Notes under the pieces: model-generated
Seen by the model: only the letters and a program-made list of their open reading frames with translations
What the model was told of the DNA's origin: nothing
Databases searched by the model: none
Translations under genes and position numbers: made by a program
From: a virus
IMG/VR virus record: IMGVR_UViG_3300035180_001847
Span: 1 to 64,000 of that record
Reading direction: 5' to 3' (one strand)
DNA length: 64,000 bases
In this document: piece by piece, positions 1,100 through 42,506 of the stretch
Position numbering within the stretch: the first letter of the stretch is position 1
Layout of the letters: the number at the start of each line of letters is the position of its first letter

Positions 1100-1262
1100 G
1101 AAGAAATCCTTCTGTGGAATTTTTGCTTCTTGTAGAAAACGAGGGATGAATTGCCATTGTCCTCCCGTCACAGTGACATCTAAAATTTTTATGATGTCGT
1201 TTCCAAAAATATCCACAACTTTAACTGCAATCTTCCGCCGTCCCGCGGGGACTTTTATCTGG
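1100..1262 (-). pseudogene. Fragment of a Type III R-M mod/res gene junction
   Basis: RRKIAVKVVDIFGND resembles a Mod C-terminus and is followed by an overlapping ATG (MAIHPSF), like Res N-termini; both are truncated. Confidence 0.5.
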
Positions 1263-1386
1263 GCTGGCTGGGATTCGACTTGTGAGCAGAAAAAACCCGA
1301 AGCCAGTGTCTCGACAGGCTCGACAACCAAAAACTGCTTGAAAATGCGGCAGAATCCCACCAGTCGGCTGCAAGCAGTTATTGGAC
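1262..1386 (-). repeat. attC-like site, right end truncated
   Basis: GTCCAAT-AACTG-CTTGCAGCC left end plus internal stem CTGGTGGGATTC/GAATCCCAGCCAG; no L'/R'. Confidence 0.6.
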
Positions 1387-1390
1387 TTCA

Positions 1391-1669
1391 CTAATTTTGA
1401 AGAACATGCTGCAATAAAAAGTTACCAAGAACAATTAGCGCAACCGCAAGAATTACAAAATCAAACCAACCAAGAGGCGAAACTTCACCACCGCACTCTT
1501 CGGCAACTTGTGAGTTGTTTTCACGCGACTCTCCCATGCGACGCAAGTTTTCTTCGTGCGCCTCTTTTTCTGCGCGTTCAATCGCTTCAATCTGATAACC
1601 ATGTGCAACAACTCCATCGGAGCGTTCCCACATTCGATAACCATCTTTATCTACACTTTGCCACGACAT
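1391..1669 (-). CDS. Cassette-like hypothetical membrane protein
   Basis: RBS AAGGAG before ATG 1669; C-terminal hydrophobic helix; flanked by attC-like sites. Confidence 0.65.
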   Translation of the reverse strand: MSWQSVDKDGYRMWERSDGVVAHGYQIEAIERAEKEAHEENLRRMGESRENNSQVAEECGGEVSPLGWFDFVILAVALIVLGNFLLQHVLQN

Positions 1670-1696
1670 AAGACTCCTTTGTTGAGTAAGGAAAAA

Positions 1697-1824
1697 GACC
1701 AACGGTTTACGTTAGTGGTTTGCGGGCGGAGTGGCATCCGCTCCACCAACAAGATTAACTTTGGTGCAGATTTACCTTCCGATTCCGCAGACTCCCTGCA
1801 AATCGGCTGCGCGCTTTGTTAGTT
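1697..1824 (-). repeat. attC-like site (complete)
   Basis: AACTAAC-AAAGC-GCGCAGCC...CACTAAC-GTAAACC-GTTGGTC; long imperfect inverted repeat; upstream gene stop TAA lies in R''. Confidence 0.85.
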
Positions 1825-2016
1825 TTCTTGCCAACCAAAGGCAAGCACAAAATACAAAAACTGAAAATTGAAAAAGGTAACTTGGTCAATCTTACGCGAA
1901 TTGTATGCTTCCATCGTTTCGCCAATAGTGAAGCTGATTACCTTAAATGGGTCTCCGCGAAACCAGCCAACGTTAAGCCATAAATTTTTATAATGAACAT
2001 TGAGACACTTTTGCAT
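1819..2016 (-). CDS. Cassette-like hypothetical protein
   Basis: RBS AAGGAG; stop codon inside attC R''. Confidence 0.65.
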   Translation of the reverse strand: MQKCLNVHYKNLWLNVGWFRGDPFKVISFTIGETMEAYNSRKIDQVTFFNFQFLYFVLAFGWQEN

Positions 2017-2039
2017 TGTTACTCCTTTTGCAAGATGAA

Positions 2040-2066
2040 AACTAACGGACTTGCTTTAGTAGCGTA
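2040..2066 (-). repeat. attC-like right half-site
   Basis: CTACTAAAGCAAGTCCGTTAGTT followed by RBS and ATG. Confidence 0.55.
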
Positions 2067-2193
2067 TGGGAGGGCGTGGATAAACTTTGAGAGCAGATAA
2101 AACCAGAACGTAGAAAAATGCCAATAAACCGCGTAAAATCCCCGGACGCCTTAATTATTGGTTTAAGAATTATGTTTACAAAATCAGCACCGC

Positions 2194-2412
2194 TCATTTA
2201 ACACCGTATTTTTTAGCAAGCAAAACAGATGTAACAAACAAACTAATTCCACCACCAACGAACATGAAGTCCGCAAAAATTGGCATGATCGCTGGAATAT
2301 GAGCCAAAAAATCAATCACGCCAAAAAAAATAAACGAAACAGAAATTCCAATTTTTGTTTTATCAGATGTCGAAAGATTGTCAACCCAAGTTGCGTTTTT
2401 GGAAATATTCAT
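2194..2412 (-). CDS. Small two-TM membrane protein
   Basis: RBS AAGGAG before ATG 2412; two hydrophobic segments. Confidence 0.6.
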   Translation of the reverse strand: MNISKNATWVDNLSTSDKTKIGISVSFIFFGVIDFLAHIPAIMPIFADFMFVGGGISLFVTSVLLAKKYGVK

Positions 2413-2743
2413 ACTAAGTTCTCCTTTCTCTTCTCCAAGTCTCCAAATAGAACCATTAAGAAAATCTATTTTCTTTGTTTCTTCACCGTAAATCAAAGTA
2501 TTTCCTTCTAAATTTCTTTCATCTTTTTCTATTTCTATTTTGGGAAAGTTGTAATAAGTATCTGAATAACTTTATTTTCAGCAATTTCATGATTAAAACC
2601 AACATAAATTTTACTCATTTTATTTAATCTCCTTTTTTATCTGATATTTTTTATTATATATCAAAACTCAATTTCTGTCAATTCTTAAATACCAATCACC
2701 CTATAACAAATTCCAAATAATCCATTATAATCCGATTATTGTT

Positions 2744-7473: not shown

Positions 7474-8310
7474 TTATTTTTCCTCCGCCGTCAAATAATC
7501 ATAGACTTCATTCCGTGCATGAATATATTTTTCACCAATTGCCAAATTACTATGACCGGCAATAAATTTTACCGCATACGGGTCTTTCGTTTTTTCGTAA
7601 ATACCCGTTAGAGTATAATGACGAAAAGCGTGTCCATGACCAAATCTGGTAATTTGATCTGCTGTAAATCCAGTGGATTTTACAAAACGATTTATGCGAA
7701 GATATACAGCCGTGCCACTAATAGCATGTCCACCCCAAGAAAACAGATATTCAGACTTCTCATGACGCATTTGGGACACGTCTGCAATCATATCCAAAAT
7801 ATCTTGAGGAAGTTTAATTGAACGTTCTTTATTACCCTTCCCATGCACAAGCAATCGTCCATCAGAAATATCGGACAATTTAATATTTGCCATTTCGCTT
7901 GAACGCAAACCAATTCTTCCCAAAATGTTGATCATCAAAAAAAGTTTCTTGTTCCCCCTTGATTTTTCAAGAATATCTTGCATTTCTGATTCAGTTGGCA
8001 TTCGTATCATTTTTTTGGCGGTGGACAGATATTCAATCTTATCAAAAATATTTGATTGAATATATTCTTGCTGATACAGCCAGCTAAAAAATGAAGAAAT
8101 AATACGAGTTATGGTATTCTTGCTTGAATTTGTAATTTTTAAACTATTTCGATATTCACGAAATTGAATGGCCGTAACCGCCTTCAAGTCTTCAATAGAA
8201 TTGATATTCAATGCCGAAAGAAAAGCATCAATTACACTTCGATATGACCGAAGGGTAAGATGACTTTTATCGTTTTTCGCATTCAAGAATTGCTCGTATT
8301 CATTGAACAT
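7474..8310 (-). CDS. Tyrosine recombinase/integrase (XerC/D-like)
   Basis: GLRSSE, HGKGNKER, HAFRH, AGHS...KY catalytic set; N-terminal SAM-like domain. Confidence 0.92.
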   Translation of the reverse strand: MFNEYEQFLNAKNDKSHLTLRSYRSVIDAFLSALNINSIEDLKAVTAIQFREYRNSLKITNSSKNTITRIISSFFSWLYQQEYIQSNIFDKIEYLSTAKKMIRMPTESEMQDILEKSRGNKKLFLMINILGRIGLRSSEMANIKLSDISDGRLLVHGKGNKERSIKLPQDILDMIADVSQMRHEKSEYLFSWGGHAISGTAVYLRINRFVKSTGFTADQITRFGHGHAFRHYTLTGIYEKTKDPYAVKFIAGHSNLAIGEKYIHARNEVYDYLTAEEK

Positions 8311-13040: not shown

Positions 13041-14102
13041 CTAGCGATTCTGAAAATTTCCTCCACCGCCATTCTGTTTTTGATTTTTTTCAAAATCTCT
13101 TAATCCAGCAGGTCTAGGACGAGGATTTTGCGGCTGTACCTGTGACTGCGATTGATTTTCCTGTGGAAAATTGCCTTCATCCTCACGATGAGATTCTTGA
13201 CGTGATTGCAAAATAATTTTTTGCTCTGGTTTTTCCGATTCGGTATCATTGGCGGGGAATTGCCGAGATTGCCTAGACCGAATTGATTGAAGTTCTTGGC
13301 GAGAATTATTTTGAATAGATTGTTTCTGATTATTATTTCCACCTTGATTTTGACCGCTAGATTTAACAGGCGCTTTCTTAAATTCGGCGCGAACCTTGTT
13401 TCTCGCCTCTTCCAAAATGGGATTAAGCAATTCGGATGGAAGATGAGAATATTGTGTTTTCAAATCATTTACAGAATTTAATTCTGCTTCAATGCTTTGA
13501 AGTTCCGCCTCAGAACTCTTAATTGCCAAATTAATACTATTCTGCTTTTGAATAACCTTGCCAAGTTCTTGATTATGTTCTCTTTTCATCTTACGAATAT
13601 CATCTGCGCTATGCCATAATTGATACCCAATAAGATGAGCAGCAAACATTATACCAATAATGATAATTGCTACAACATCCCAGCCATCAATACTCGTAGT
13701 GGTTGGCAATAAACTTGTGGTCAAATTAATATTTCCATTAGAAGAAAGTCTTATTAAATTTACAATAAGCAATAAAATCGCTCCACCAGTTGTGAGACCT
13801 GTCATTATATGAGAAATACTTTGTTGACGAACACTGTTCAGTGGACGCTCAGAAACAATATGCCATCCTGCCAAAAATACACCGAATAAAACACCAATAA
13901 ATAAAGCTACTATTAAACCAAAATCTTGAACCGATGAAATGATATTCGCAGTAGTTTCAGTCCCAACCAATAATAAAAACATGATAAAAGCAGGCCATGC
14001 ATGGACATCAATTGCCTTTAAACCATTTTTAAGAGCTTCCCAAATACTTGTCTCATTTGCATTTTTTTGATTTTGATTTGAAGTCAAATTGTTATTCATC
14101 AT
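13041..14102 (-). CDS. Membrane protein (4 TM) with coiled-coil and Q/N-rich tail
   Basis: Hydrophobic segments in N-half; RBS AAGGA. Confidence 0.75.
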   Translation of the reverse strand: MMNNNLTSNQNQKNANETSIWEALKNGLKAIDVHAWPAFIMFLLLVGTETTANIISSVQDFGLIVALFIGVLFGVFLAGWHIVSERPLNSVRQQSISHIMTGLTTGGAILLLIVNLIRLSSNGNINLTTSLLPTTTSIDGWDVVAIIIIGIMFAAHLIGYQLWHSADDIRKMKREHNQELGKVIQKQNSINLAIKSSEAELQSIEAELNSVNDLKTQYSHLPSELLNPILEEARNKVRAEFKKAPVKSSGQNQGGNNNQKQSIQNNSRQELQSIRSRQSRQFPANDTESEKPEQKIILQSRQESHREDEGNFPQENQSQSQVQPQNPRPRPAGLRDFEKNQKQNGGGGNFQNR

Positions 14103-14486: not shown

Positions 14487-14782
14487 CCTTCATAATTATC
14501 ATTCCTCGCGTCATCAATTTCCGTTGAAGCAGTTTTCATACTTTCAATTTCATTAGACATATCTTTATTAATAATCCAAACCATTGATTTACCAACATAT
14601 TTACTTGGCTCAACTTCTATCTTTCCATAAAAATATTTTTTTTCAACATCAAAAGGCGAAACATATATTAGGGTTGGAAAATAATTATATTTATCAATGA
14701 AATATTTTATGGCATCATCAATTTTCTCCTCGAAAGTTTTTTGTTTATCTGTATTAAGAGCATAAAGCATTCCAGTCGTCAT
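14483..14782 (-). CDS. Hypothetical protein
   Basis: RBS GGAG; ATGA overlap. Confidence 0.65.
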   Translation of the reverse strand: MTTGMLYALNTDKQKTFEEKIDDAIKYFIDKYNYFPTLIYVSPFDVEKKYFYGKIEVEPSKYVGKSMVWIINKDMSNEIESMKTASTEIDDARNDNYEG

Positions 14783-14797
14783 TGGTCATTATCTCCA

Positions 14798-15424
14798 TCA
14801 CTCTATTTTTTTATATCCTGCATCATGGATATATTTTGTATAATCTCTTTTATATGCCTTTCTTTTTATCACATCATCGGAAGGAAAGTCGTAAAAATGT
14901 TTTAATAAATGCTTCAAGTGAACATTCTTCCCGCCCATCCTATTTCCAAAATTCATCTCGCCCGATATGAAATCAGCCGTAGTATGCAATGAATCGGCTA
15001 AAACCAAACCCAAATACATTGCCGAGAATTCAACATACAATGGATCAATAAAATAATGCCTAAAAACAACTATAAAAGGAAATCCAAAATACATCAACCG
15101 AATGAATGTTGAAACAAAATAACTATGACTGAGAAATCCACGATGCCCACCAAAACGCTGTATTGCTCTTGCATAAAATGTAGACATTACCAATAAGGGA
15201 ATAAGGATGACTGATTTTATCCAAAATGCCTCATCATCATTGATTCCTATTAAGTCTAAATCATTTGTAATGCCTAAAAAATGTAATCCATATCCCACCA
15301 GGAAAAATAAACCAAAATACCACCATCCTTCAATTGCAAAAAGCAACGCGATAATCACTGCAAATGGAATGAACGATTTCCAAATTTTTCTATGAGTTTT
15401 GCCATCAGGCAGAGTAATCACCAC
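14798..15424 (-). CDS. DUF2227-like putative metal-binding membrane protein
   Basis: PDGKTH, DLD, HRGFLSHS, LH..AD motifs. Confidence 0.7.
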   Translation of the reverse strand: MVITLPDGKTHRKIWKSFIPFAVIIALLFAIEGWWYFGLFFLVGYGLHFLGITNDLDLIGINDDEAFWIKSVILIPLLVMSTFYARAIQRFGGHRGFLSHSYFVSTFIRLMYFGFPFIVVFRHYFIDPLYVEFSAMYLGLVLADSLHTTADFISGEMNFGNRMGGKNVHLKHLLKHFYDFPSDDVIKRKAYKRDYTKYIHDAGYKKIE

Positions 15425-15621
15425 CTTTAAAATATGATAAATTCCACAAAAAACTCTGAATATTCAAGATAAAAACAATTTTTTACATAGGAAAAGATTA
15501 TATACTATTTTATCTATTTTGTCAAGGGCGCAATTTGATTTTACTGATTTTGTCTCTGGCATCAACCATCTTCAATCTCGTAAATTCCAAAAGATAGAAA
15601 TCACTCTTTCCCATCACTTGT

Positions 15622-16377
15622 TTACTGCACGCTTTTGTTAGAATGAGTAAGGGACTTAAGCCTTAAAACCGCCGATTGATTAGAATCACAGCCAATGCAA
15701 GACCTGCCTAACTCATGTGCTACTTTCAGAAATGAGCCACTGTCACAAAAGAAGTCTGCAACAATATCATTTTCATTCGATGAAGCCAGTACAATCCTTT
15801 TCATAATCTCACTTGGTTTCTGTGTGGCGTATCCGTTACGCTCTTTTGACATTGTATTGAAGGTCATTTCCCAAACATCGGACGGGATGCGTCCTGCTGG
15901 AATTGGACTTCCTTTTTGAGAACCATGCAGATATCTCCATTCTGTCATTTTACTCTTGTAGGGAATAAATACAGGATTGAAGGTGTATTTTTCTGACTTT
16001 GAATAAAACAAAATTGTATCGTGCTTTCTGGCAAAGCGTGTTTTTCCACGCCCGCCCATATCGTGATGCCAGATTATTTCATTCACAAAGTTATCATAAC
16101 CAAAAATTTTATCCATTTCAACTTTCACATAGTGAACGGCGTGCCAATCAAGGTGTACATAAATACTACCTGTTGGCTTTAGAAGCCTGTGCATTTCCTT
16201 CAACCGCTCAATCATAAAATCAAGGTAGTGTTGCATTGATTTCCAGCGGTCATCAAAATTTCCATAATCACGCTGTGAGAAGTAAGGCGGGTCAATGTAT
16301 ATTAGGTCAATTGTTTCGCTCGGCAATTCTCGCATGATTACGAGATTATCGCCTTCGTAGATTATAAAGGTACTCAT
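15622..16377 (-). CDS. Beta-class N6/N4 DNA methyltransferase (cassette-like)
   Basis: DPPY, YATQKP, DFFCDSGS (G to D in motif I); C-terminus SNKSVQ runs into attC left half. Confidence 0.85.
   Translation of the reverse strand: MSTFIIYEGDNLVIMRELPSETIDLIYIDPPYFSQRDYGNFDDRWKSMQHYLDFMIERLKEMHRLLKPTGSIYVHLDWHAVHYVKVEMDKIFGYDNFVNEIIWHHDMGGRGKTRFARKHDTILFYSKSEKYTFNPVFIPYKSKMTEWRYLHGSQKGSPIPAGRIPSDVWEMTFNTMSKERNGYATQKPSEIMKRIVLASSNENDIVADFFCDSGSFLKVAHELGRSCIGCDSNQSAVLRLKSLTHSNKSVQ
15625..15643 (-). repeat. attC-like left half-site
   Basis: TTCTAAC-AAAAGC-GTGCAG. Confidence 0.6.
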
Positions 16378-16386
16378 TTTTCAGAA

Positions 16387-16420
16387 GTCCCAACGGTTTA
16401 CCCCACCTGTTTTGTTGGAC
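16387..16420 (-). repeat. Collapsed attC-like site
   Basis: GTCCAAC-AAAA-CAGGTGGG-GTAAACC-GTTGGGA; both cores present, central stem deleted. Confidence 0.6.
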
Positions 16421-17195
16421 ATCGCTCTAATTGCACCAAACGCTCGTTTGTTAAAGCCACATGTTCAGCGGATATATCAATGCCGATATAATGACGGTTG
16501 AGAAGTTTGGCCATTTTCGGGGTAGTGCCCGACCCGCAAAAACAATCAAGGACGGTATCGCCTTCGTTTGACCAAGATAAAATATGATCTTGCGCTAATG
16601 CTTCGGGAAATGTGGCGGGATGTTGAAACGCTATTTTATCTGTTGAGCCTACCATCCAACCACCGCGAATATCCCAAACATTAGTACGCTTTGAGTGAGT
16701 GTTGCCATTTGCCATAAACTCTTTTGTCTTCCCGTTTTTCTTTCTCATGGATGATTTACCAGTTTTTATATATTTATTTTCACGGTCTTTCAAAAGATTT
16801 ATTGACTTCGGCTTTCCTTTGCTAAAAACGAACATATATTCAAAAGCCTGTGTATAGCAATAATTAGAACCCTTCGTTCCGCCTTGTGCGCCCTTATTGT
16901 AAATCATAGTATCGTGGAGATTGAAGCCACATTGCATAAAATAGAGTGCTTGACGGAAAGAAGTGCCGCTCTCCGTTCCCTTTTTTGTTTCATCAGTTAC
17001 AACCCACACCACCACACCGCCCGCCTTTGTGACCCGATACAACTCGCTGGTAATGGTTTTAAAATCGAAAACAAAGCCTTTATAGTCTCTCATGCTATCA
17101 TAGGGTGGAGACGTGATAGTAAGGTCTATGCAATCGGGTGGAAAGGATTGTAAAACTACTGCGCTATCACCTGAGATTATTTTATCAAGTTCCAT
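16398..17195 (-). CDS. Beta-class N4-cytosine/N6-adenine DNA methyltransferase (cassette-like)
   Basis: TSPPY, HPATFP, DCFCGSGTT; likely start MELDK at 17195. Confidence 0.88.
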   Translation of the reverse strand: MELDKIISGDSAVVLQSFPPDCIDLTITSPPYDSMRDYKGFVFDFKTITSELYRVTKAGGVVVWVVTDETKKGTESGTSFRQALYFMQCGFNLHDTMIYNKGAQGGTKGSNYCYTQAFEYMFVFSKGKPKSINLLKDRENKYIKTGKSSMRKKNGKTKEFMANGNTHSKRTNVWDIRGGWMVGSTDKIAFQHPATFPEALAQDHILSWSNEGDTVLDCFCGSGTTPKMAKLLNRHYIGIDISAEHVALTNERLVQLERCPTKQVG

Positions 17196-17214
17196 AATGT
17201 TATTCAAAATTACT

Positions 17215-17433
17215 TCAATCTTCAAACTCGTTGCCCTTGTCGCTTGCACGCTTTGTTGGACAACTGAGTGCGAAAGCAAAGAACCCAAGAGCAATAACCG
17301 AAACAATTGAAAAATAAAGCCAATCACCAGCAGACCACATAAACATATTTTCTGTCAATTTTGCAGCGATGTTTCGAGACACATTGTAAAAAGATGAGCC
17401 GATTGCCAATATGAAAGCCTTACCGTATTCCAT
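17215..17433 (-). CDS. Cassette-like small membrane protein
   Basis: RBS AAGGA; tail runs through attC left half GTCCAAC-AAAGC-GTGCAAGC (17242-17261). Confidence 0.6.
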   Translation of the reverse strand: MEYGKAFILAIGSSFYNVSRNIAAKLTENMFMWSAGDWLYFSIVSVIALGFFAFALSCPTKRASDKGNEFED

Positions 17434-17460
17434 TTACGATTCCTTTCTGTTGGGCATTCC

Positions 17461-17555
17461 GCCCAACGGCTCTCATGTCAGTTGCAAGAACCACTAACCT
17501 TTTTGATTTTCACGGCTCGAATGCCGACTCTTATCTACCGCGCGCGGCGTTAGAC
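17461..17555 (-). repeat. attC-like site (complete, diverged)
   Basis: GTCTAAC-GCCGC-GCGCGGTA...AACTGAC-ATGAGAGCC-GTTGGGC. Confidence 0.65.
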
Positions 17556-17733
17556 CCACACAACACAAAAGGGCGTGAGCCATGCCGCACGACTCGCACG
17601 GGCGATTAGGATTGTTGGCGGATGTATCATCGCCATAACAACCACACGCGGGAAGCATACAATCGGCGTAGGGCGTAACAAGCCAGGTTTTATGACAGAT
17701 AGGGCATGTGCTTTGACCAGCATTTAATGACAT
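17494..17733 (-). CDS. Cys-rich (Zn-binding) cassette-like protein
   Basis: CPIC, CGC, CESC; RBS AAGGAG. Confidence 0.65.
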   Translation of the reverse strand: MSLNAGQSTCPICHKTWLVTPYADCMLPACGCYGDDTSANNPNRPCESCGMAHALLCCVGLTPRAVDKSRHSSRENQKG

Positions 17734-17762
17734 TGCGAAACTCCTTATCTTGCAAGATGGGG

Positions 17763-17853
17763 GGATAACGATTTGCTTCAGTGGCGTGCAACGGATAGCG
17801 CTTGTCCAAAAATTACCTACGCTCGTCCATATCGGGTGAACGCATTGTTAGCC
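17763..17853 (-). repeat. attC-like site (complete)
   Basis: GGCTAAC-AATGC-GTTCACCC...CACTGAA-GCAAATC-GTTATCC. Confidence 0.75.
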
Positions 17854-18032
17854 CGCGCTATTGCTTCCATGAGATTTCCGGCAGAAACGGAAATGCCGTC
17901 TCCATTCAGCGCGTAATCTGTACCAATATAGTTTTTTGATTCATCATAATTATCATAATCATCAACTTTCACACCGTATTTATTAAACAATTCGCCTAGC
18001 TCAACCAAAAACTTAATTTGCTTCTCACTCAT
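17817..18032 (-). CDS. Cassette-like hypothetical protein
   Basis: RBS AAGGAG; ends ANNAFTR (attC read-through). Confidence 0.65.
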   Translation of the reverse strand: MSEKQIKFLVELGELFNKYGVKVDDYDNYDESKNYIGTDYALNGDGISVSAGNLMEAIARANNAFTRYGRA

Positions 18033-18365
18033 GTTTGCAATACTCCTTTGCTATAAGATATTTGTACGTTGAAATCATTTTGTTTTGCATAGTAGCTCCT
18101 AACTATATTTTGAGCGGTGAAATCACAGCTTAAACACCCAATTAATCTTGCTCATCACTCAGCAACCGCGCAATGTTCTGTAACATTGACGTTTTACTGG
18201 TTGATTTTTGCAACATCAAAACCGCAAATAGCACAACGTAAGGCACGCATAATTCTATCTATTCGCGCTTCCCATGTCTAATAGCAATTATTACAAAAAA
18301 CTTTTGGCATATTTACCGTTCTTATTCCAAATATTTTTTCTCTGCATCAATCTTACTTGCAATCT

Positions 18366-18431
18366 ATTATAAACTCTAAACCTTTAAAAGTCAATATGAC
18401 AAATATCACTCATTTTCAATATAAATATCAT
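18366..18431 (-). promoter_or_regulatory. Sigma70-type promoter with dyad operator
   Basis: TTGACT-17-TATAAT; ATGACAAATATCAC at 18396-18409. Confidence 0.7.
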
Positions 18432-20806: not shown

Positions 20807-21355
20807 TCAGCAGCGTGCTTGGACAGCAAGCCATGCATAGAATTGTTGAATTAGTGCAAACTCTTTCGGGGATAGTGTATTGCATTCCAAAGAATACCTA
20901 ACAGATAAATTTTCTTTGCCAAAAAGTTCTTCGCACTTCACACACCTATTCACCGGCATACTTGCTTTTGCGCGAAGGTCTGCGAGTTGTTCAAATGCTT
21001 CTTCTATTGCATATGGATGGGTTTCAATTATTCCCCATTTTCCATCGCGCGCCCATTCCAGGACTTCATCAATTTGCATATTACTTCCTTTCTGGAACAT
21101 CAAACGGTTTGCGTTGACCTTCGTTGATTTCCTGTGAGGCAGATTACAGGTGGGACAAACTGCTGGATTGTTAACATCAAATCCAGGAAATCTACAAGCA
21201 CATAACATGGTTTGTTGTTCATCTTGTTGAATAACTTCTTTGAGAGTGGCGATTTCACTTTCTGCCTGATGCAACTTTGCAAGCGTTACGTTTAGCGCAC
21301 CCCGACAATTGCCATGCAAAACTATTAGCTTATTCAATTCAGTTGTTGTGTTCAT
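20807..21355 (-). CDS. Two cassette-like genes fused in frame (starts 21355 and 21079)
   Basis: Both ATGs have an RBS; attC right half GGTCAAC-GCAAACC-GTTTGAT (21099-21119) lies between them inside the ORF. Confidence 0.6.
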   Translation of the reverse strand: MNTTTELNKLIVLHGNCRGALNVTLAKLHQAESEIATLKEVIQQDEQQTMLCACRFPGFDVNNPAVCPTCNLPHRKSTKVNANRLMFQKGSNMQIDEVLEWARDGKWGIIETHPYAIEEAFEQLADLRAKASMPVNRCVKCEELFGKENLSVRYSLECNTLSPKEFALIQQFYAWLAVQARC

Positions 21356-21376
21356 AAAACTCCTTTTGTAAGTTCT

Positions 21377-21515
21377 ATCCAACAAGTTGCTTTGCTGGCT
21401 GGTGGGCGATGAAAGTATCCGCTTTAGGAGCAATAAAGTCTTCGAGTGTAGATTGACTCGATGGGGGAGGAAGAATTCTAGCCCGCCACACGTCAATCTG
21501 CACGCTTTGTTAGCC
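21377..21515 (-). repeat. attC-like site (complete)
   Basis: GGCTAAC-AAAGC-GTGCAGAT...CAGCAAA-GCAACTT-GTTGGAT; upstream stop TAA in R''. Confidence 0.8.
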
Positions 21516-21770
21516 ACCTATGTGATTGGTAGCCTCGCCATTCGGATTGCGTGAGACATAGGCAATCCACTCCGCACCATCATACTGAGCAGGAAAATAA
21601 ACAAACTTCTCTGACCACGCTGTAAATGGTTTGCCATTCGTACTGCCATAGCCATTATCAAACTTCACATCAAGTTCTTCTTGTGACAGTGTGATTTTTG
21701 TGTTCTCAAATGTATCACCAGTCTCAACGAACACTTTTTCAAACATTTTGCGCCAAGTTACTTCTGACAT
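21510..21770 (-). CDS. Cassette-like conserved phage hypothetical protein
   Basis: FDNGYG...FTAW...VYFPAQYDGAEW; RBS AAGGAG. Confidence 0.75.
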   Translation of the reverse strand: MSEVTWRKMFEKVFVETGDTFENTKITLSQEELDVKFDNGYGSTNGKPFTAWSEKFVYFPAQYDGAEWIAYVSRNPNGEATNHIGG

Positions 21771-22102: not shown

Positions 22103-22125
22103 AACTAATGGTTTGCGTCACTTGC
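22103..22125 (-). repeat. attC-like right half-site
   Basis: AAGTGAC-GCAAACC-ATTAGTT. Confidence 0.6.
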
Positions 22126-22327
22126 TTTTCTTTTCAAATAAATCAACATATTCCTGAGTAGCAAGCCCATAAATATAAGCAAACCAATCGAGGGCGAGAA
22201 TAGTACCAACCACGCCCCAAACCCACCCCCCCGCATGGAATTTATCGAGCAACAAATAACAGATAAGCGAGAACTGCAAAGGCATACGAACGGGCAAATT
22301 CTTTTCTGCAATAACTTTTGTTTTCAT
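22118..22327 (-). CDS. Small membrane protein, copy 1
   Basis: Near-identical to 23127..23336. Confidence 0.7.
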   Translation of the reverse strand: MKTKVIAEKNLPVRMPLQFSLICYLLLDKFHAGGWVWGVVGTILALDWFAYIYGLATQEYVDLFEKKSK

Positions 22328-22353
22328 ATTTTTTTCTTTCCTTTCAAGAAGCA

Positions 22354-22445
22354 AATTAACGGATTGCGTCAGCTGCGTGGAACGGACGGCTCAAATTTCA
22401 AATAACGTTGGTCGCACCACATGTCAACTGCACACTTTGTTAGCC
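22354..22445 (-). repeat. attC-like site (complete), family copy 1 of 3
   Basis: GGCTAAC-AAAGT-GTGCAGTT...AGCTGAC-GCAATCC-GTTAATT. Confidence 0.8.
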
Positions 22446-22452
22446 AGCCGCA

Positions 22453-22812: not shown

Positions 22813-22834
22813 TGCTAATGGCTTGCGTTAACCG
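22813..22834 (-). repeat. attC-like right half-site
   Basis: GGTTAAC-GCAAGCC-ATTAGCA. Confidence 0.6.
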
Positions 22835-23097: not shown

Positions 23098-23126
23098 TGC
23101 GCCTTCAAGCCTTCTAATGGTTTACG

Positions 23127-23336
23127 TTACTTGTTTTTCTTTTCAAATAAATCAACATACTCTTGAGTAGCAAGTCCATAAATATAAGCAAACCAATAGA
23201 GGGCGAGAATAGTACCAACCATGCCCCAAACCCACCCCCCCGCATGGAATTTATCGAGCAACAAATAACAGATAAGCGAGAACTGCAAAGGCATACGAAC
23301 GGGCAAATTCTTTTCTGCAATAACTTTTGTTTTCAT
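23127..23336 (-). CDS. Small membrane protein, copy 2
   Basis: Near-identical to 22118..22327; RBS AAGGAG. Confidence 0.7.
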   Translation of the reverse strand: MKTKVIAEKNLPVRMPLQFSLICYLLLDKFHAGGWVWGMVGTILALYWFAYIYGLATQEYVDLFEKKNK

Positions 23337-23362
23337 ATTTTCTCCTTTCCTTTCAAGAAGTA

Positions 23363-23454
23363 AATTAAAGGTTTGTGTTGGGCGCGTGGAACGAGCGGCT
23401 CGAATTTTAAATAACGCTGGTCACACCACACGTCAACTGCACGCTGTGTTAACC
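23363..23454 (-). repeat. attC-like site, family copy 2 of 3
   Basis: GGTTAAC-ACAGC-GTGCAGTT...GCCCAAC-ACAAACC-TTTAATT; shares central sequence with 22354..22445. Confidence 0.75.
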
Positions 23455-23627
23455 CGCAGCCAATAGGCAAAATGTGGAGACCATGTTTGAACCTGCCAGC
23501 AATGACGCTTGCCATTGAAGATTATGAACGCCGCAGGATGTGCCAGGTTCGCGCCGAACCAAAGATTAAAGATACCTACCCTAAAAGACCACTTGCCAGA
23601 CCAGCGAGAAAATTCTATATTTTTCAT
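23433..23627 (-). CDS. Cassette-like hypothetical protein
   Basis: RBS AAGGAG; ends VNTACS in attC; preceded by right half-site 23658-23679. Confidence 0.6.
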   Translation of the reverse strand: MKNIEFSRWSGKWSFRVGIFNLWFGANLAHPAAFIIFNGKRHCWQVQTWSPHFAYWLRVNTACS

Positions 23628-23684
23628 GTTTGCAAAACTCCTTTGTTGTAAGATGCGAGTAATGGTTTGTGTTAGTAGCCACCA

Positions 23685-23951: not shown

Positions 23952-24033
23952 TGTTTCATCTCCTTTTGTAATCCATATATAATTATACAGATAATCTATG
24001 TATTGTCAAGGATAAAAATCGAATTGGGAAGGC

Positions 24034-24987: not shown

Positions 24988-25010
24988 GTTTTCTCCTTTC
25001 ACCAAGTGGC

Positions 25011-25103
25011 GACTAGCGGCTTGCGTCAGCCGCGTGGGGACGTACGGCTCAAATTTCAAATAACGTTGGTCGCACCCCACGTCGGCCGCACGCTGTATTA
25101 GAC
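25011..25103 (-). repeat. attC-like site, family copy 3 of 3
   Basis: GTCTAAT-ACAGC-GTGCGGCC...GGCTGAC-GCAAGCC-GCTAGTC; central CGGCTCAAATTTCAAATAACGTTGGTCGCACC identical to copy 1. Confidence 0.8.
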
Positions 25104-25214
25104 CCCACCACTGGTTGCGTAACGCGGTAGGGAATATTGAGCGGGTTACTATTTTTGCAAGCGACTTATGAAAGCCCGCAACAATCATATAAAAGAACAA
25201 GTATAAAAACTGGA

Positions 25215-27425: not shown

Positions 27426-27689
27426 CTATAAAAAATGGATTCTTGCATTCTTTAAACCATTTTTAGAACGCTCTCCGATTTTAGCCTGAGATAAATCAGA
27501 TAAAAATACTAGAACTTTTCTACTAGGAACGTTAAAAGAATAAGTATAACCAGAAACATAAGCAACCTGATTATCTTGCTCTTTAACTTGTTTCTTTAAC
27601 TTGCGTTCTAGGGTTTGGGTGAGTTCTCGCTCCCCAAGATAATCCTCTCCGCCGTTCAAATAAATAATGGTTGTTCGAGTATTTTTCAT
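27426..27689 (-). CDS. Hypothetical protein
   Basis: Own promoter and tandem operator 27711-27776. Confidence 0.6.
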   Translation of the reverse strand: MKNTRTTIIYLNGGEDYLGERELTQTLERKLKKQVKEQDNQVAYVSGYTYSFNVPSRKVLVFLSDLSQAKIGERSKNGLKNARIHFL

Positions 27690-27810
27690 TTTTGTTTTTC
27701 CTTATAACTCATTATAATACTAAATAGAAAATAAAGCAATATGACATTCATCACTTTTTATTATGACAAAATCTTCATTTGCCTTCTTTACCATATTTCT
27801 GATAGTATTT

Positions 27811-28068
27811 TTAATTACCTGGCCGCAAATATGATTGATTATTTGCGTCCATCCAAGCGTAATTAATATGGTCAATTTCAGACGACGGGAAAGAGATGGA
27901 TTCAAAATGTTGCTTTTCATATTGAGAATACAATCGATATAGAAACGGAAGATTTTCATAAGCCCTAAGCGGATCATCAAAATTCTGATAAAATTTATCG
28001 TTGCAAAACTTCGGATAATCACCATGAAGCAAAGGAATGTTTTTATTTTTTTTCATTTTTTTTATCAT
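27811..28068 (-). CDS. Hypothetical protein
   Basis: Own promoter TTGACT...TATAAT and operator 28134-28147. Confidence 0.55.
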   Translation of the reverse strand: MIKKMKKNKNIPLLHGDYPKFCNDKFYQNFDDPLRAYENLPFLYRLYSQYEKQHFESISFPSSEIDHINYAWMDANNQSYLRPGN

Positions 28069-28311
28069 TTCCTTCCATGTTTTTTTATTTTATCTTATGA
28101 TTCATTATAATTCAAAATAAATAAAAAGTCAATATGACAAATATCACATCAAAATAAATCAAATGCAATAATCCATCACGCAACCACTAAAAACGCCACA
28201 ATCAATTTAATTGATAAAACCGTGATTTCATACCTGTTTGATTGTAAAAATCGCCCCTAAACGTTCATAGGGGCGTTCAGAGACATTGCCAATCAAATCT
28301 TGATAAGACTT

Positions 28312-29598: not shown

Positions 29599-29613
29599 AT
29601 TTTCTCCGTTTCT

Positions 29614-29720
29614 GCCCAACGATTTGCGTTAACGGCGGGTGGATTGAACAGAGCCACCGCCACCGCAGACCACTATTTTGGGGACGACTGTTCACCCGTC
29701 TGCTGCACGCTTTGTTTGAG
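29614..29720 (-). repeat. attC-like site (complete)
   Basis: CTCAAAC-AAAGC-GTGCAGCA...CGTTAAC-GCAAATC-GTTGGGC; stem ACGGGTGAACAG/CTGTTCAATCCACCCGC. Confidence 0.8.
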
Positions 29721-29852
29721 CGCGTCTATGATTTGCATGGCTTCTTCGTTACTGCGAAATTCAATTAGTGACCACGCTACGCCATTATGTGACACTTTCA
29801 GCCAGCGGACACCCTCTTGATGCTCATCGTTTACAACTTCAACTTTTATCAT
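29673..29852 (-). CDS. Cassette-like hypothetical protein
   Basis: Ends KQSVQQTGE (attC read-through). Confidence 0.6.
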   Translation of the reverse strand: MIKVEVVNDEHQEGVRWLKVSHNGVAWSLIEFRSNEEAMQIIDALKQSVQQTGEQSSPK

Positions 29853-29858
29853 TTGTCG

Positions 29859-29977
29859 CTCCAACGATTTGCGCTAGCGGCTTTTCGCGGGCAACGCAAC
29901 ATCAAAAATACAGGCACAGCGCGGGCAATTCGCCACCGCCACCGCATACCGAGAATCGGTTGCGCGCTTTGCTAGGC
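29859..29977 (-). repeat. attC-like site (complete)
   Basis: GCCTAGC-AAAGC-GCGCAACC...CGCTAGC-GCAAATC-GTTGGAG. Confidence 0.75.
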
Positions 29978-30113
29978 GTTCTGCCAATACTGCACGAATA
30001 TCGGATAAGAAACTGTTTTCGCTGGGATTACTCACTCGATGCGCCGTATCAATTAGGGCATTGAGTAAATCTTCATCGGAATATTTTTCAAGTGTATTCA
30101 TTTGCGTATTCAT
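29874..30113 (-). CDS. Cassette-like hypothetical protein
   Basis: RBS AGGAG; C-terminus encoded by attC. Confidence 0.6.
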   Translation of the reverse strand: MNTQMNTLEKYSDEDLLNALIDTAHRVSNPSENSFLSDIRAVLAERLAKRATDSRYAVAVANCPRCACIFDVALPAKSR

Positions 30114-30127
30114 TTGCGCTCCTAAAC

Positions 30128-30220
30128 GCCTAGCGATTTGTTAGTAGCATGTGGGCGAAGGAATAAGCCTTGATCTGGTTTACCACCGCCCACCCTTGTC
30201 ACCTGCAAACCTTGTTAGCC
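30128..30220 (-). repeat. attC-like site (complete, diverged)
   Basis: GGCTAAC-AAGGT-TTGCAGGT...TACTAACAAATC-GCTAGGC. Confidence 0.7.
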
Positions 30221-30225
30221 CACAC

Positions 30226-30456
30226 CTAGATTTCAACAATAATCGGTTCGATGATACCATCTGGATAACAAGATAAACCTTTTGAAGCCGCTTTTGCCAC
30301 AATGTCATGAAACGTTTCCGGAACGATTGATAGCCCATCATTTTGATTGTAATCTCCGGAAAACTCTTCTCCGTTAACGTTGCCACCAAAAAAGGCGACC
30401 ACGCCGTCAGCGCACTCTTCGCGCACATACTTTGTGAACGTTACTACCTTGTCCAT
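30226..30456 (-). CDS. Hypothetical protein
   Basis: First gene after promoter 30499-30542; followed by attC. Confidence 0.65.
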   Translation of the reverse strand: MDKVVTFTKYVREECADGVVAFFGGNVNGEEFSGDYNQNDGLSIVPETFHDIVAKAASKGLSCYPDGIIEPIIVEI

Positions 30457-38324: not shown

Positions 38325-38475
38325 TTATGTGTATATGTGTTTAGTTATGTGTTTATGGTTATGTCGTTATGGTTGTGTTTATATCGTGGTTGTGTGTTTA
38401 TTTGTTTATGTTTATATGTATATATGTATATATATGTATATGTGTATATGTATATGTGTATATATGTGTGTGTTG
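38325..38475. repeat. TA/TG low-complexity tract
   Basis: (TATG)/(TATATG)-like units, almost no C on + strand. Confidence 0.8.
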
Positions 38476-39050: not shown

Positions 39051-40091
39051 TTATGGTAATCTTATCAGGTCATCGGTAAGGTATCTTTGATTGTATTCCC
39101 AATCCTTTGATGGGGGTGTAGGTTGTTCGTATTCATCTTTATCAATCATTTGCATAAATTTTTTTAATTCATTTTCATAATTCTCTTTCATTTTCAGATA
39201 CTTCTTTTTCGCATCTTTATTGACAAACGTGGCAAATTTTCCGTTCAGTGAATTTCTAAATTTTATTAATTCGTCGTATTCTTTTTTGTAAGAATCAAGA
39301 TTTTCTTCCAAATTATCTGTGCAGCCTATTAAAAATCCATATTGTAATTTATGAAGTCCCATTTGCTTTGCAACTTCTTCGTCCACGTTTCGATAAAATT
39401 CTGGTAGCCTTCCAATGAAAAATAATTTCCCAAGATTTTTTTGAGTAACATTTTCACTTAACATATTATTTAGGATTTTATTCTTTATGCTCAATATTTT
39501 ACTTTCCTCTTTATCCGTCGTGATTCTATCTTCTGTTCCATCGAATACCATGTGTCTTTTATCTACAAGTATGATGAAATTATCCTCTAAAACTTTTAGC
39601 GCGCTTTTAAGCATTTCTCTCATTTTAGCTTCTGTTCTAATATAAAATTCCTTCATATCTTTAATTTCAATATTTGTTGGACACTCACTGATATATGCTT
39701 CTATGGATTTTTTAGCTGGTAAGTATTTGCTATTTATCATTCCAGTTATTTCAAATATTTCTTTATGTGTAAGAAAAGTTCTCTTATCATCATTCACGAA
39801 AATTCTATCGTTTTTGTGTTCCGCCAGGTAATTTAACAATTGCACGGAAATATCCTCGACATAAATAGACCGATTTCCAAGTTTTCTATTATCAATTTTA
39901 GACAATTCATTTTTATATATTTTTTCAATTATAAGAGATTGACCATCTGATTTATTAAACTTGAAATATCTTTCAAGTTCTCTCATTTGATAAATCTTTG
40001 CTTTTCCAGTTTTTTCTTTAATATCAAGTAATACACAAAGTTCACGATAGTTTTTTATTATCTGACCCTCGGATATATTTCTAATGTTCAT
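39051..40091 (-). CDS. Conserved phage hypothetical protein (possible DNA-binding/replication protein)
   Basis: GQIIKNYRELCVLL N-terminus; overlaps MTase stop; ends at the inverted repeat. Confidence 0.7.
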   Translation of the reverse strand: MNIRNISEGQIIKNYRELCVLLDIKEKTGKAKIYQMRELERYFKFNKSDGQSLIIEKIYKNELSKIDNRKLGNRSIYVEDISVQLLNYLAEHKNDRIFVNDDKRTFLTHKEIFEITGMINSKYLPAKKSIEAYISECPTNIEIKDMKEFYIRTEAKMREMLKSALKVLEDNFIILVDKRHMVFDGTEDRITTDKEESKILSIKNKILNNMLSENVTQKNLGKLFFIGRLPEFYRNVDEEVAKQMGLHKLQYGFLIGCTDNLEENLDSYKKEYDELIKFRNSLNGKFATFVNKDAKKKYLKMKENYENELKKFMQMIDKDEYEQPTPPSKDWEYNQRYLTDDLIRLP

Positions 40092-40833
40092 TGATTTGTT
40101 CCATCCTTTTCTTTGCAATTTCAAATATCTCTTCGTCCATTTCCATACCGATAAATTTACGCTTCAAATCTAAAGATGCTATTCCAGTGCTTCCACTGCC
40201 CATTGCATTATCTAAAACCACATCTCCTTCTAAAGTATAACTTTTTATTAAAAATTTTAACAATTCAACGGGCTTTTGAGATGTGTGTAACCTATTGTAA
40301 TTATCTACACACTTATATGTCAATAAATTGGTGGGATAACGGGTTGTATCCCCGCCCTGATAGTCTCTTTTATTTTCTCCCAAATAAGCTCCTCCGTAGG
40401 TTTTGCCCTTTGCCGAATTTGTGGGAATATGTCCATCTGTTTTTTGAGGATAATAAGAGCCATTGTAAAATATAACTATTTCTTCTATCTTACGCAATGG
40501 TTGTCTTTTGGCGTGGAGGAAATGAGTGGATTGATTTTTTTCCCAATACCAACAATATTTATAGTTTTTTCTATTGGATGTTATAAGGTCTGTGGTAAAA
40601 GGTTGTTGTCCAAATAGTGCAACCGTTCCTTTTGGAGATAAAATTCTTTTATATTGTTTCCAGAGAAGAGTTAGGTCTATTGACTTATCCCATTTTGAAG
40701 CAAGTTGTTTATAGGGAAGATCGGCAAGAATTAGGTTTATGGATTTGTCTGGAATATTTTTCATTAATTCTAAACAATCACCCCACCAAAGCTGCACATC
40801 TCTGTTTTCAATTTGATTATTTTCATCGTTCAT
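40081..40833 (-). CDS. Beta-class N6/N4 DNA methyltransferase
   Basis: GDCLELM, DLPY, HTSQKP, DNAMGSGSTG; RBS AAGGAG. Confidence 0.92.
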   Translation of the reverse strand: MNDENNQIENRDVQLWWGDCLELMKNIPDKSINLILADLPYKQLASKWDKSIDLTLLWKQYKRILSPKGTVALFGQQPFTTDLITSNRKNYKYCWYWEKNQSTHFLHAKRQPLRKIEEIVIFYNGSYYPQKTDGHIPTNSAKGKTYGGAYLGENKRDYQGGDTTRYPTNLLTYKCVDNYNRLHTSQKPVELLKFLIKSYTLEGDVVLDNAMGSGSTGIASLDLKRKFIGMEMDEEIFEIAKKRMEQINEH

Positions 40834-40907
40834 GTTTTTCTCCTTGTGAAATATTATTGAATATGAAATATCATCATATTTAATAATATATAAATATCTA
40901 AACTCAA

Positions 40908-40985
40908 ATTTTACCACCTCGCGTCAAACTTGTCAATATCCTTGATTTCAACACTCTTGACAAATAAAATCTTTTATGATATACT
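40908..40985. promoter_or_regulatory. Back-to-back sigma70-type promoters at the strand switch
   Basis: Minus: TTGACA(40936)-17-TAAAAT; plus: TTGACA(40957)-17-TATACT. Confidence 0.75.
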
Positions 40986-41053
40986 GTTAAAAATAGAATA
41001 TTGTATTTTTAGGAGTTTGGACACGCCAACTGGAACTCATGCCCGTTTGTCAA

Positions 41054-41075
41054 CGGCTAATTCAAACTGTGGGGT
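41054..41075 (+). repeat. attC-like right half-site (degenerate)
   Basis: CGGCTAAT-TCAAACT-GTGGGGT. Confidence 0.5.
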
Positions 41076-41114
41076 AACAAGTTATTACCCAAAAATAAAA
41101 TCATCGGAGAAATT

Positions 41115-41723
41115 ATGCATACACATACAGCAAAAAACCTTTTCAATCAGAATATTCAAAGCGCCAAAGATAGTCTTGCGCTTTATGATGCAATTGCTGC
41201 ACTCCAGCCAAGAGGCGTGGATATCAATTGGGTACTCAGGTCTGCCGTTGTATTTGCGGTTTCAGCACTTGATACATTTTTCCACGACAAAATCAAATAT
41301 CGTGTCGGGAGATTTGATTTTGGAAATATTCCGCCTGCTTTTGCAAAATTTGAAATTGAAATCAAGGATTTAATTTCGTGGGACAAATCAAGGAGAAAAG
41401 GCGATATTTTGCAAAATTGGGTCACTAATTATCTATCAACGCGTTCTCTACAATCACGAACGGAAATCGAAGAGTCTTTGAAAATGGCGGGAATTAACGC
41501 TGTTTGGGACACTATTGAACCAGATAAAGATAATAAAAATGCGCTTTTGCGAGACCTTGATCTTTTGGTCAAACGACGAAATCAAATTTCTCATGAAGGA
41601 GATAGAGTAACTTCTCGTAGAAGTGGAAAAACATTGCGCCCAATCACTAGACTAGAAGTAGAGAATTGGATAAAGTTTGTTGAATACATCGTTCTTAAAG
41701 TTGAAAATGCATTTCCTGGCTAG
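41115..41723 (+). CDS. HEPN-domain protein (cassette-like)
   Basis: LRSAVVFAVSALDTFFHD N-helix and RNQISH (Rx4H) motif. Confidence 0.75.
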   Translation: MHTHTAKNLFNQNIQSAKDSLALYDAIAALQPRGVDINWVLRSAVVFAVSALDTFFHDKIKYRVGRFDFGNIPPAFAKFEIEIKDLISWDKSRRKGDILQNWVTNYLSTRSLQSRTEIEESLKMAGINAVWDTIEPDKDNKNALLRDLDLLVKRRNQISHEGDRVTSRRSGKTLRPITRLEVENWIKFVEYIVLKVENAFPG

Positions 41724-41737
41724 ATTATGAAAAAATC

Positions 41738-41870
41738 ACCCAATAACGTATGCTCCCGACTAGCGGGAGTCTGGTTGCCATAAATAGGTTTTATCTATTC
41801 TTTGAGTTTAATTTCCTTTCGGGCATTTTCTCAGCCCCGTTCCACAAGCGGCTGACGCAAACCGCTAAGT
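41738..41870 (+). repeat. attC-like site (complete), plus strand
   Basis: ACCCAAT-AACGT-ATGCTCCC...GGCTGAC-GCAAACC-GCTAAGT. Confidence 0.72.
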
Positions 41871-41890
41871 GGCTAGGGTAAAGGAGTCTA

Positions 41891-42442
41891 ATGGCAAGGA
41901 AAGAGTTTGTCGCTGGCAAAGCGGCTGGTAGGCAGGAAGGTTATACTTCAACACACTTCACGCCCGAAACGGCTGTAATTGATTTACTTCAATTCATCCC
42001 GTTTGAAAGTGGAGATATTGCACTTGATCCTTCTGCTGGCGTAAATAAAGTTTGGTTCAATAATTTTCCATGCAATAAAGATTACTGTGAAATTGATGAA
42101 GGTTTAGATTTCTTTGAGTATCCAAAACAAGTTGATTGGATCATAGGCAATCCGCCTTTCACTGATTTTATAAAGTTTCTTATGCACAGCCCCAGCATTG
42201 CAAGAAAAGGGTTTGCTTATCTTATCGGGCATAGTCGTCTCAATCAGGTTACACCGAAGCGATTGAGTATCTTGGAAGAAAAAGGTTTCTATTTATCAGG
42301 CATCCAAATCTGTACATTCAAAGCATGGTTTGGCAGGTATTACTTCCTGATTTTCACTCGCTCCAAGAATGAAGGTATCGGCTATTCACGAAAGAATTAT
42401 AGCCATGAAGTCTCTACGCCGCAGAACAATGTGTGCTGTTAA
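41891..42442 (+). CDS. Small N6-adenine DNA methyltransferase (cassette-like)
   Basis: FTP, LDPSAG, GLDFF, IIGNPPF; RBS AAGGAG; stop in attC. Confidence 0.8.
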   Translation: MARKEFVAGKAAGRQEGYTSTHFTPETAVIDLLQFIPFESGDIALDPSAGVNKVWFNNFPCNKDYCEIDEGLDFFEYPKQVDWIIGNPPFTDFIKFLMHSPSIARKGFAYLIGHSRLNQVTPKRLSILEEKGFYLSGIQICTFKAWFGRYYFLIFTRSKNEGIGYSRKNYSHEVSTPQNNVCC

Positions 42443-42506
42443 AATTTGAATAATTTTACGGTTTTATCTCGTCCCGCTCATATGCAGATAGCGCAAACCG
42501 TTGGCC
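42421..42506 (+). repeat. attC-like site (diverged), plus strand
   Basis: GCAGAAC-AATGT-GTGCTG...AGATAGC-GCAAACC-GTTGGCC. Confidence 0.65.

Follow-up and report, generated by a model that had tools for sequence, protein, structure and literature searches.

We found that a 64,000-nt stretch of viral DNA (the window; bases 1–64000 of the IMG/VR virus record IMGVR_UViG_3300035180_001847) carries repeats that are very probably genuine integron attC sites bounding gene cassettes, from the family that populates the chromosomal integrons of Chloroflexota (Anaerolineae). The complete record, 105,455 bp with direct terminal repeats, is a real tailed phage and encodes a portal protein, terminase, tape measure protein, and minor tail protein. 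Each cassette would consist of an attC site plus the small gene ahead of it, and the cassettes appear to stand in at least six co-oriented arrays of the early or accessory regions, downstream of sigma-70-type phage promoters. Because they lack an integrase, such arrays would be clusters of attC sites lacking integrases (CALINs) in the terms of IntegronFinder.

A sequence-only reading of this DNA had described co-oriented repeats that each bound one small gene, and these proved real. The window contains 16 copies of the right core CTAACGCAAACCGTT (up to three mismatches), compared with an expectation of 1.3, and none of 100 shuffles attained 16; the left core CTAACAAAGCGTGCAGC is present nine times, with 0.05 expected. 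One core match lies outside the blocks of that reading; all others are on the local gene strand. The unit begins with R' (GTTRG or ATTAG), followed within 10–25 nt by a Shine-Dalgarno sequence and an ATG and then by one small open reading frame (ORF), the stop of which often falls within the next xxCTAAC core, as had been noticed at 1819, 21510, and 25576.

We also used a home-built covariance model (R1), trained on outside family sequences only. At E<0.05, it recognized 15 full-length sites in the genome: 12 in the window (90–143 nt) and three at 87.6–88.5 kb. Two weaker matches (E above 0.05) were also found in the window. In the window, the ten sites left of 40.9 kb lie on the minus strand and the two at 41.7–42.5 kb on the plus strand, and no R1 match has the orientation opposite to the genes. 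The sites cluster at 17.2–17.9, 21.1–23.5, 29.6–30.2, 41.7–42.5, and 87.6–88.5 kb, and additional sites lie at 1.7 and 25.0 kb; thus, at least two co-oriented attC sites occur within a few kb of each other with no intI nearby, which is the pattern that defines a CALIN. About ten further half or collapsed sites were read directly from the sequence, among them right halves TAAC-GCAAACC-ATTAG at 22107, 22817, 23116, and 23661 and left halves at 15625, 17243, and 25564. The earlier count of about 13 complete elements therefore becomes 12 model-positive sites, several of those taken as complete being eroded. The sites in the window are as follows.

29612–29722, minus strand: attC, best in the window (R1 52.4 bits, E 7e-13), AAC and GTT intact
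25009–25105, minus strand: attC with a long bulged stem and cores AAT/GCT (49.0 bits); the minimum free energy (MFE) fold retains 17 long-range stem pairs
22352–22447, minus strand: attC (46.1 bits; repeat families D2 and D7)
1695–1826, minus strand: attC of the long class (40.4 bits), with the stop of ORF 1819–2016 inside R''
21795–21886, minus strand: attC with R' = ATT, upstream of the 21510–21770 cassette (31.6 bits; alignment with contig L016)
23361–23456, minus strand: attC with R' eroded to TTT (30.7 bits)
29857–29979, minus strand: attC of the long class with R'' = AGC (30.0 bits)
30126–30222, minus strand: attC with R' = GCT (23.3 bits)
17761–17855, minus strand: weak attC after ORF 17817–18032 (16.8 bits, E 0.03)
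42419–42508, plus strand: weak attC after a methyltransferase-like gene, last of the plus-strand array (16.6 bits)
41736–41872, plus strand: weak attC after the HEPN gene, cores AAT/GCT (16.3 bits)
21375–21517, minus strand: own attC of the 21510–21770 cassette, left arm intact and right arm eroded (16.0 bits; alignment with the cassettes of contigs L118 and L120)
17219–17263, minus strand: remnant, left arm only (12.6 bits, E 0.5; left-core match)
21097–21131, minus strand: remnant, right half only (10.2 bits); ORF 20807–21355 runs through it
22107–22121, minus strand: right-half site (xxGAC-GCAAACC-ATT) directly after ORF 22118–22327 (core matches and sequence)
22817–22831, 23116–23130, and 23661–23675, minus strand: similar right-half sites (core matches and sequence)
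16387–16420, minus strand: collapsed site (GTCCAAC ... GTTGGGA) between two methyltransferase cassettes (sequence)
15625–15643, minus strand: left core only, at the end of block B and just before the consensus promoter 15525–15497 (sequence)
18103–18160, minus strand: degenerate attC remnant ending in GTT (sequence), with a similar copy at 88.1 kb, where synteny with contig L180 breaks

The sites 22352–22447, 23361–23456, and 25009–25105 form a three-copy sub-family, and a strain variant of the last has GTT in place of the mutated core. Two ORFs extend into sites. ORF 20807–21355 (minus strand, 182 aa) traverses the right-half remnant at 21103–21117 and looks as if it were a fusion of two adjacent cassette ORFs. 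The cassette ORF 87855–88103 (minus strand, 82 aa; L041:3855-4103) has no stop at R'' and continues through most of the attC at 87838–87966.

The attC identity of these repeats is supported by family structure. An IMG/VR search for both cores, spaced as in the phage, yielded 36 elements from 32 contigs; their lengths cluster at 81–97 nt. Their layout is GCCYAAC, AAAGC, GTGCA, N4, G[A]C, a variable stem and its complement, GC, the complement of N4, TAAC, GCAAACC, and GTTRGGC; AAC and GTT are invariant in all 36 members, and the GCCYAAC and GTTRGGC flanks are common. With the structure fixed by eye, 87% of the cells in this reference set are paired, and both sides have changed in 18 of the 26 pairs (15 of 19 for the stem pairs). 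The covariation score is 0.469 (n = 36) compared with 0.139 for shuffled and approximately 0.09 for slid controls. For the phage sites, 76% of the cells are paired versus at most 37% in slid controls, and the GA step is found in 13–14 of 14. Covariation among outside members, together with R1 sites in the phage, bears out the proposed integron-type R''-L''...L'-R' layout. Furthermore, invariant G17 and C18 in L'' lie opposite a single A, for a net surplus of one base, and a near-invariant unpaired A (column 24, at least 90% conserved) is found 6 nt further in. The resulting geometry, R''-5 nt-3 nt-[C]-6 nt-[A], matches that of attC-aadA7, as printed in the PMC9892861 supplement, and appears consistent with the extrahelical bases of attC sites. 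The extra C previously assigned to L'' is therefore supported as a net extra base at positions 3–4; that it is the C would follow by analogy with attC-aadA7, and which of G17 and C18 flips is not readable from sequence alone.

Arrays of R1 sites lie directly beside IntI genes (TIGR02249, cut-off 265 bits) in three independent contigs, two of which come from Chloroflexota metagenome-assembled genomes (MAGs). In G005 (405 bits) and in a 330-kb Anaerolineales contig (G011 contig 5, L181; 430 bits), seven and four R1 sites, respectively, directly follow intI, and in a Chloroflexota MAG (G012 contig 11; 446 bits) one R1 site is found at the contig edge. Because R1 arrays adjoin these bona fide IntI genes, the repeat family is an integron attC family. 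When one genome per species was scanned, R1 arrays were found mostly on large Chloroflexota/Anaerolineae contigs.

Some features of these contigs are worth recording. G005 (IMGVR_UViG_3300021090_000015; L038, L039, L042, and L043) contains an integron that is complete: intI lies at 15003–15950 and the attC sites at 16.5–19.3 kb. Its DNA (52% G+C) is unrelated to the phage studied here. The distance of 39.7 kb between its portal genes, at 25.8 and 65.5 kb, points to a phage of about 40 kb whose assembly ran beyond one genome length, or else to a pair of tandem prophages. For two of the three arrays linked to IntI (G005 and L181), intI lies upstream of the cassettes and in the same direction, an "inverted integrase" layout rather than the usual divergent one.

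These results bear on whether the elements are phage-specific structured repeats (e.g., terminators, repetitive extragenic palindrome-like elements, or RNA processing sites) that merely resemble attC. Being intergenic, G+C-rich, and partly palindromic, with the canonical attC shape rare in their MFE folds, they would suit such an origin, but we consider it very improbable: no T run follows the elements, a terminator scan does not coincide with them, the same family occurs in arrays beside bacterial IntI genes, and the cassettes common to the phage and those arrays have their boundary at R'.

Two cassettes have homologues in other attC arrays. The gene of the 21510–21770 cassette shares approximately 89% nucleotide identity with a gene in L016 and L117, contigs of about 55% G+C from other samples that contain arrays of the same attC family. 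The homology starts at TTAG of R', and the upstream attC there is unrelated to that of the phage. The next-closest homologues (L118–L120, 66–78% amino acid identity) have R1 matches on both flanks in each case; remoter ones occur in ordinary phage contigs without attC flanks. The methyltransferase at 16398–17195 has 55% amino acid identity to a cassette in L017 that sits between two attC sites.

A comparison with a related phage gave a second well-resolved boundary. L180, an independent IMG/VR contig found with the helicase as query, is 96% identical to the phage over 13.6 kb of replication genes (G0 101684–88114, in coordinates of the complete record). This identity stops at the second T of the GTT that closes a degenerate attC (G0 88116–88114), and different cassettes lie beyond. 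Among these L180 cassettes is one that shares 88% identity with the block-B cassette at 18060–17831 in the phage, 70 kb away from the equivalent of the L180 breakpoint. As read from these alignments, the breakpoints of cassette exchange fall at GTT of R'; a difference in gene content between relatives exactly at this point was the test that the sequence-only reading had proposed, and its outcome is positive.

Variation among strains was also observed. Four runs from four sediment and microbial-mat studies contain the region, and insertions, deletions, and rearrangements in them end on attC cores: the joints 25015/25578 and 22095/22839, a 567-nt insertion at 24715, and joints linking attC sites at 23.4 with 29.7 kb and at 29.9 with 18.1 kb. 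These are supporting evidence only, because the contigs are short and the joints of low stringency. Two other candidates, 17206/17763 (with a side of 21 nt) and 29440/30196, were too weak or off the cores and are not counted as evidence.

The same contigs make it scarcely credible that the record is an assembly chimera of bacterial integron reads in a phage. The record is a metagenome assembly, and its cassette blocks are higher in G+C than the backbone. However, there are at least six separate blocks, co-oriented with phage genes and behind phage promoters; the region is present in all four runs, where one contig joins backbone and block B (14500–18094) with only five differences; and L180 shows the same backbone-array junction independently.

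As for the mechanism, an integron integrase from the infected cell may have inserted, excised, or swapped cassettes at G|TT of R', either through recombination of attC × attC or through insertion into secondary sites of the replicating phage DNA. Integrase-driven exchange in infected cells would therefore give the phage a cassette pool shared with bacterial integrons and related phages. The role of IntI as the recombinase, the time of exchange, and the host involved are what we infer from these patterns.

Several observations weigh against this interpretation. The phage has neither IntI nor a recognisable attI, its sites score 16–52 bits compared with 45–92 bits in bacterial arrays, and AAC and GTT are both kept in only nine of 15 sites (AAC in 11, GTT in 10), the non-consensus cores reading AAT, AGC, GCT, ATT, or TTT. 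In bottom-strand MFE folds, the long-range stem is retained in six of 14 phage sites versus 31 of 36 reference sites, and the R''/R' pairs close in only two of 14. Among the strain joints, all of which come from short metagenome contigs, some (25015/25578 and 17206/17763) differ from clean G|TT products. The G+C content of the phage is 34%, compared with 50–60% in the Chloroflexota arrays, and no match of phage DNA was found in 401 Chloroflexota genomes. Finally, because the seed motif of R1 was taken from the phage under study, the argument for family membership is circular in part, which does not apply to the IntI linkage or the covariation.

The folding check that had been suggested showed a long-range stem in some sites and closed R boxes in few. 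The mean fold z-score is approximately −1.5 for the phage sites versus −3.5 for the reference sites. MFE folding alone cannot decide attC identity, because only 20 of the 36 reference attC sites close the R box. Many phage sites are probably inactive now, and given the eroded cores and weak folds, many cassettes are probably fixed and decaying. Judged by their sequences, the sites at 29612, 22352, 1695, 87838, and 17761 look competent.

This erosion raises an alternative that we regard as unlikely, although it is the most serious of those considered: the sites derive from attC but are inert fossils, and cassette exchange, both among phages and with host arrays, now proceeds by homologous recombination rather than an integrase, with the conserved attC sites as portable homology patches. 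PeSL, the promoter-plus-hairpin repeats of T4-type phages reportedly described by Arbiol, Comeau and Krisch in 2010, are said to act by homologous recombination in this manner. Besides the erosion of cores and stems at many sites, the attC remnants and cassette 5' ends that recur almost unchanged at 18.1 and 88.1 kb would fit, as would the phage's own RecJ-like and ExoV-like recombination/exonuclease genes and the strain joints that lie between similar remnants, off G|TT (e.g., 24710/25573). However, the two best-resolved breakpoints lie exactly at GTT/TTAG of R', where the flanking attC sites are dissimilar and share less than 16 nt of homology, and site-specific exchange therefore fits better than homologous exchange.

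No IntI was reported in the window earlier, and we found none there or in the rest of the 105,455-bp genome, which encodes only two tyrosine recombinases, both Xer-like.

7474–8310, minus strand: Xer-like tyrosine recombinase, 278 aa, 41.6 bits with TIGR02249 (cut-off 265), best match XerA/XerC-like
about 69.9–70.9 kb: second Xer-like tyrosine recombinase

An IntI with the IntI-specific additional domain, by which a complete integron is recognized, is thus lacking. IntI is evolutionarily related to Xer recombinases, and one of the two phage proteins might act on the attC sites or on the TAAC-7 nt-GTTAG right halves, so that IntI would be unneeded; the right halves do resemble a dyad with a 7-nt spacer, as double-stranded core sites have. 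Were this so, the phage would encode a cassette system independent of IntI, by which anti-defence genes are shuffled among phages and bacterial integrons are tapped. We consider this improbable, more so than the fossil sites discussed above. Both proteins score far under the IntI model (35–42 bits versus 265) and align to real IntI around the catalytic motifs only, and the family is tied to true IntI in bacteria. Moreover, neither IntI nor any tyrosine recombinase candidate was found in two other phage records in which this attC family forms dense arrays, L025 (G003, 38.4 kb, at least 15 sites) and L024 (G004, 43.3 kb, at least 11 sites). Both records, "complete" in IMG/VR, have direct terminal repeats and encode a terminase.

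The cargo of the cassettes with assigned or shared genes is as follows.

15622–16377, minus strand: N6/N4 DNA methyltransferase cassette (PF01555, E 3e-51)
16398–17195, minus strand: N6/N4 DNA methyltransferase cassette (PF01555, E 2e-44)
21510–21770, minus strand: 86-aa cassette gene (phrog_21631), the one with approximately 89% nucleotide identity to a cassette in an unrelated 55%-G+C attC array
41115–41723, plus strand: RiboL-PSP HEPN cassette (PF18735, E 2e-14)
41891–42442, plus strand: methyltransferase-like cassette (phrog_799, E 8e-17)

Where three methyltransferases had been named as cassettes, we counted four methyltransferase-like genes in all, of which the one at 40081–40917 is not flanked by model matches. 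The remaining cargo comprises many small proteins without assigned function, with one membrane-protein cassette present as a duplicate. Promoters stand at the heads of the arrays.

23982–24009, minus strand: perfect TTGACA-16-TATAAT promoter, head of the 23.9–20.6 kb array
18366–18394, minus strand, and 40957–40985, plus strand: similar promoters at heads of arrays

Each array runs as far as the following promoter or a terminator-like hairpin near 20.6 kb. From this arrangement, the phage early promoters may in effect act as the Pc promoter of an integron.

This kind of system is already known. A survey of 10,705 phage genomes identified three complete integrons, one In0, and 17 CALINs, the last in both temperate and virulent phages and with two to four predicted attC sites in a single cluster; five methyltransferase cassettes were found in phages, and five of six tested phage attC sites recombined with attI1 under IntI1 (Qi et al., 2023, Front Microbiol 14:1091391; PMC9892861). 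The suggestion that the system is undescribed therefore fails, because phage CALINs, including methyltransferase cassettes, were reported there. The arrays described here resemble those CALINs in having co-oriented attC-bounded cassettes in a phage, no IntI, and N6_N4 methyltransferase cassettes, and both suggest that the integron cassette pool serves phages as a source. What goes beyond the 2023 description is the scale and dispersal (15 sites and approximately 10 remnants in at least six arrays over 105 kb, compared with two to four attC sites in one cluster), the Chloroflexota-type family, and the breakpoint evidence, with swaps seen against a 96%-identical relative. The prophage Va_90-11-286_p16 of Vibrio anguillarum, which holds a captured piece of a chromosomal integron with 16 attC sites of the host's type (PMC9892861), is also a phage genome with many attC sites. 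However, it has one contiguous array with IntI, derived from a prophage integrated inside the host integron, whereas the sites here are dispersed, without an integrase, and within early transcription units.

The sedentary chromosomal integrons of Chloroflexota (Anaerolineae) share with the phage arrays the consensus GCCYAAC-AAAGC-GTGCA-N4-GA-stem ... N4-TAAC-GCAAACC-GTTRGGC, two length classes (approximately 95 and 130 nt), one ORF per cassette, and homologous cassettes. Those integrons are dense, G+C-rich, and beside IntI, with high-scoring sites (45–92 bits), whereas the phage arrays have eroded cores and low scores (16–52 bits), no IntI or recognisable attI, and are interrupted by phage promoters and genes. 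PeSL are likewise repeats that bound small accessory genes in plastic early regions and promote their shuffling; they are phage-specific, unlike the elements here, which belong to an integron attC family linked to IntI.

The integron cassette pool has recently been shown to store bacterial anti-phage defences. The methyltransferases, the HEPN protein, and the small phage-type proteins among the cargo suggest that phages use this pool for counter-defence, and phage genes are suggested as one source of integron cassettes. Phage-borne attC arrays can greatly exceed the reported CALINs of two to four sites in size and dispersal, and in this 105-kb phage they in effect organise the accessory early regions. 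The sequences also provide evidence of cassette traffic at G|TT, both between near-identical phages and between phage and the arrays of Chloroflexota, a poorly studied phylum. Because several further IMG/VR records of phages are dense in sites of this attC family, large phage arrays may be common in environmental viromes.

The DNA of the phage comes from microbial mats and sediments, with contigs from four metagenome studies. Backbone G+C content is about 32%, and that of the blocks in the sequence-only reading is 41–43%. Other genes encode a DNA polymerase, a Dda/ExoV-like helicase, a RecJ-like exonuclease, and a GH25 lysin, for which a search of a protein atlas returned viral GH25 clusters only. 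A YonO-type single-subunit RNA polymerase (910 aa, 43627–46359, plus strand) opens the plus-strand module; its nearest relatives, with 25–36% identity, are in Bacillus and Clostridium phages (36% for Bacillus phage BUCT082 and 28% for Clostridium phage c-st). An Rfam scan at the gathering threshold found two tRNAs only; Rfam has no attC family. Blastn of 20–26 kb against GenBank phages gave no match, and IMG/VR relatives were not found with the lysin, the YonO-like RNA polymerase, a clamp-like protein, or ORF 13041–14102 as query, the helicase alone succeeding. In the host search, phage DNA at 43–62.9 kb gave one 60-nt match (78%) in an AT-rich repeat among the 401 Chloroflexota genomes, which is uninformative.

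Other repeats were also observed. The fronts of early genes share motifs of 35–90 nt at 8366, 25895, 29027, 32472, 35174, and 36167 (D5, D8, and D18), and copies of the D12 motif lie ahead of early genes at 18364, 28102, and 30497. Examples of these motifs are GCCAGTGAT...ATGTCATATTTT and AAAGTCAATATGACAAAT. Judged by sequence, they look like common promoter/operator elements, separate from the attC sites. A long (TAAA)n microsatellite beside the second tRNA gene and an 8-nt periodic TG/TA-rich repeat occupy 52256–52371 and 38326–38475, respectively. The summed contig depth at 27541–28107 (an early-promoter repeat region) and 29809–30375 (a cassette with its attC sites) is 5–10 times that of the neighbours, reaching 362 and 126, respectively; these segments therefore occur in further abundant genomes from those samples as well.

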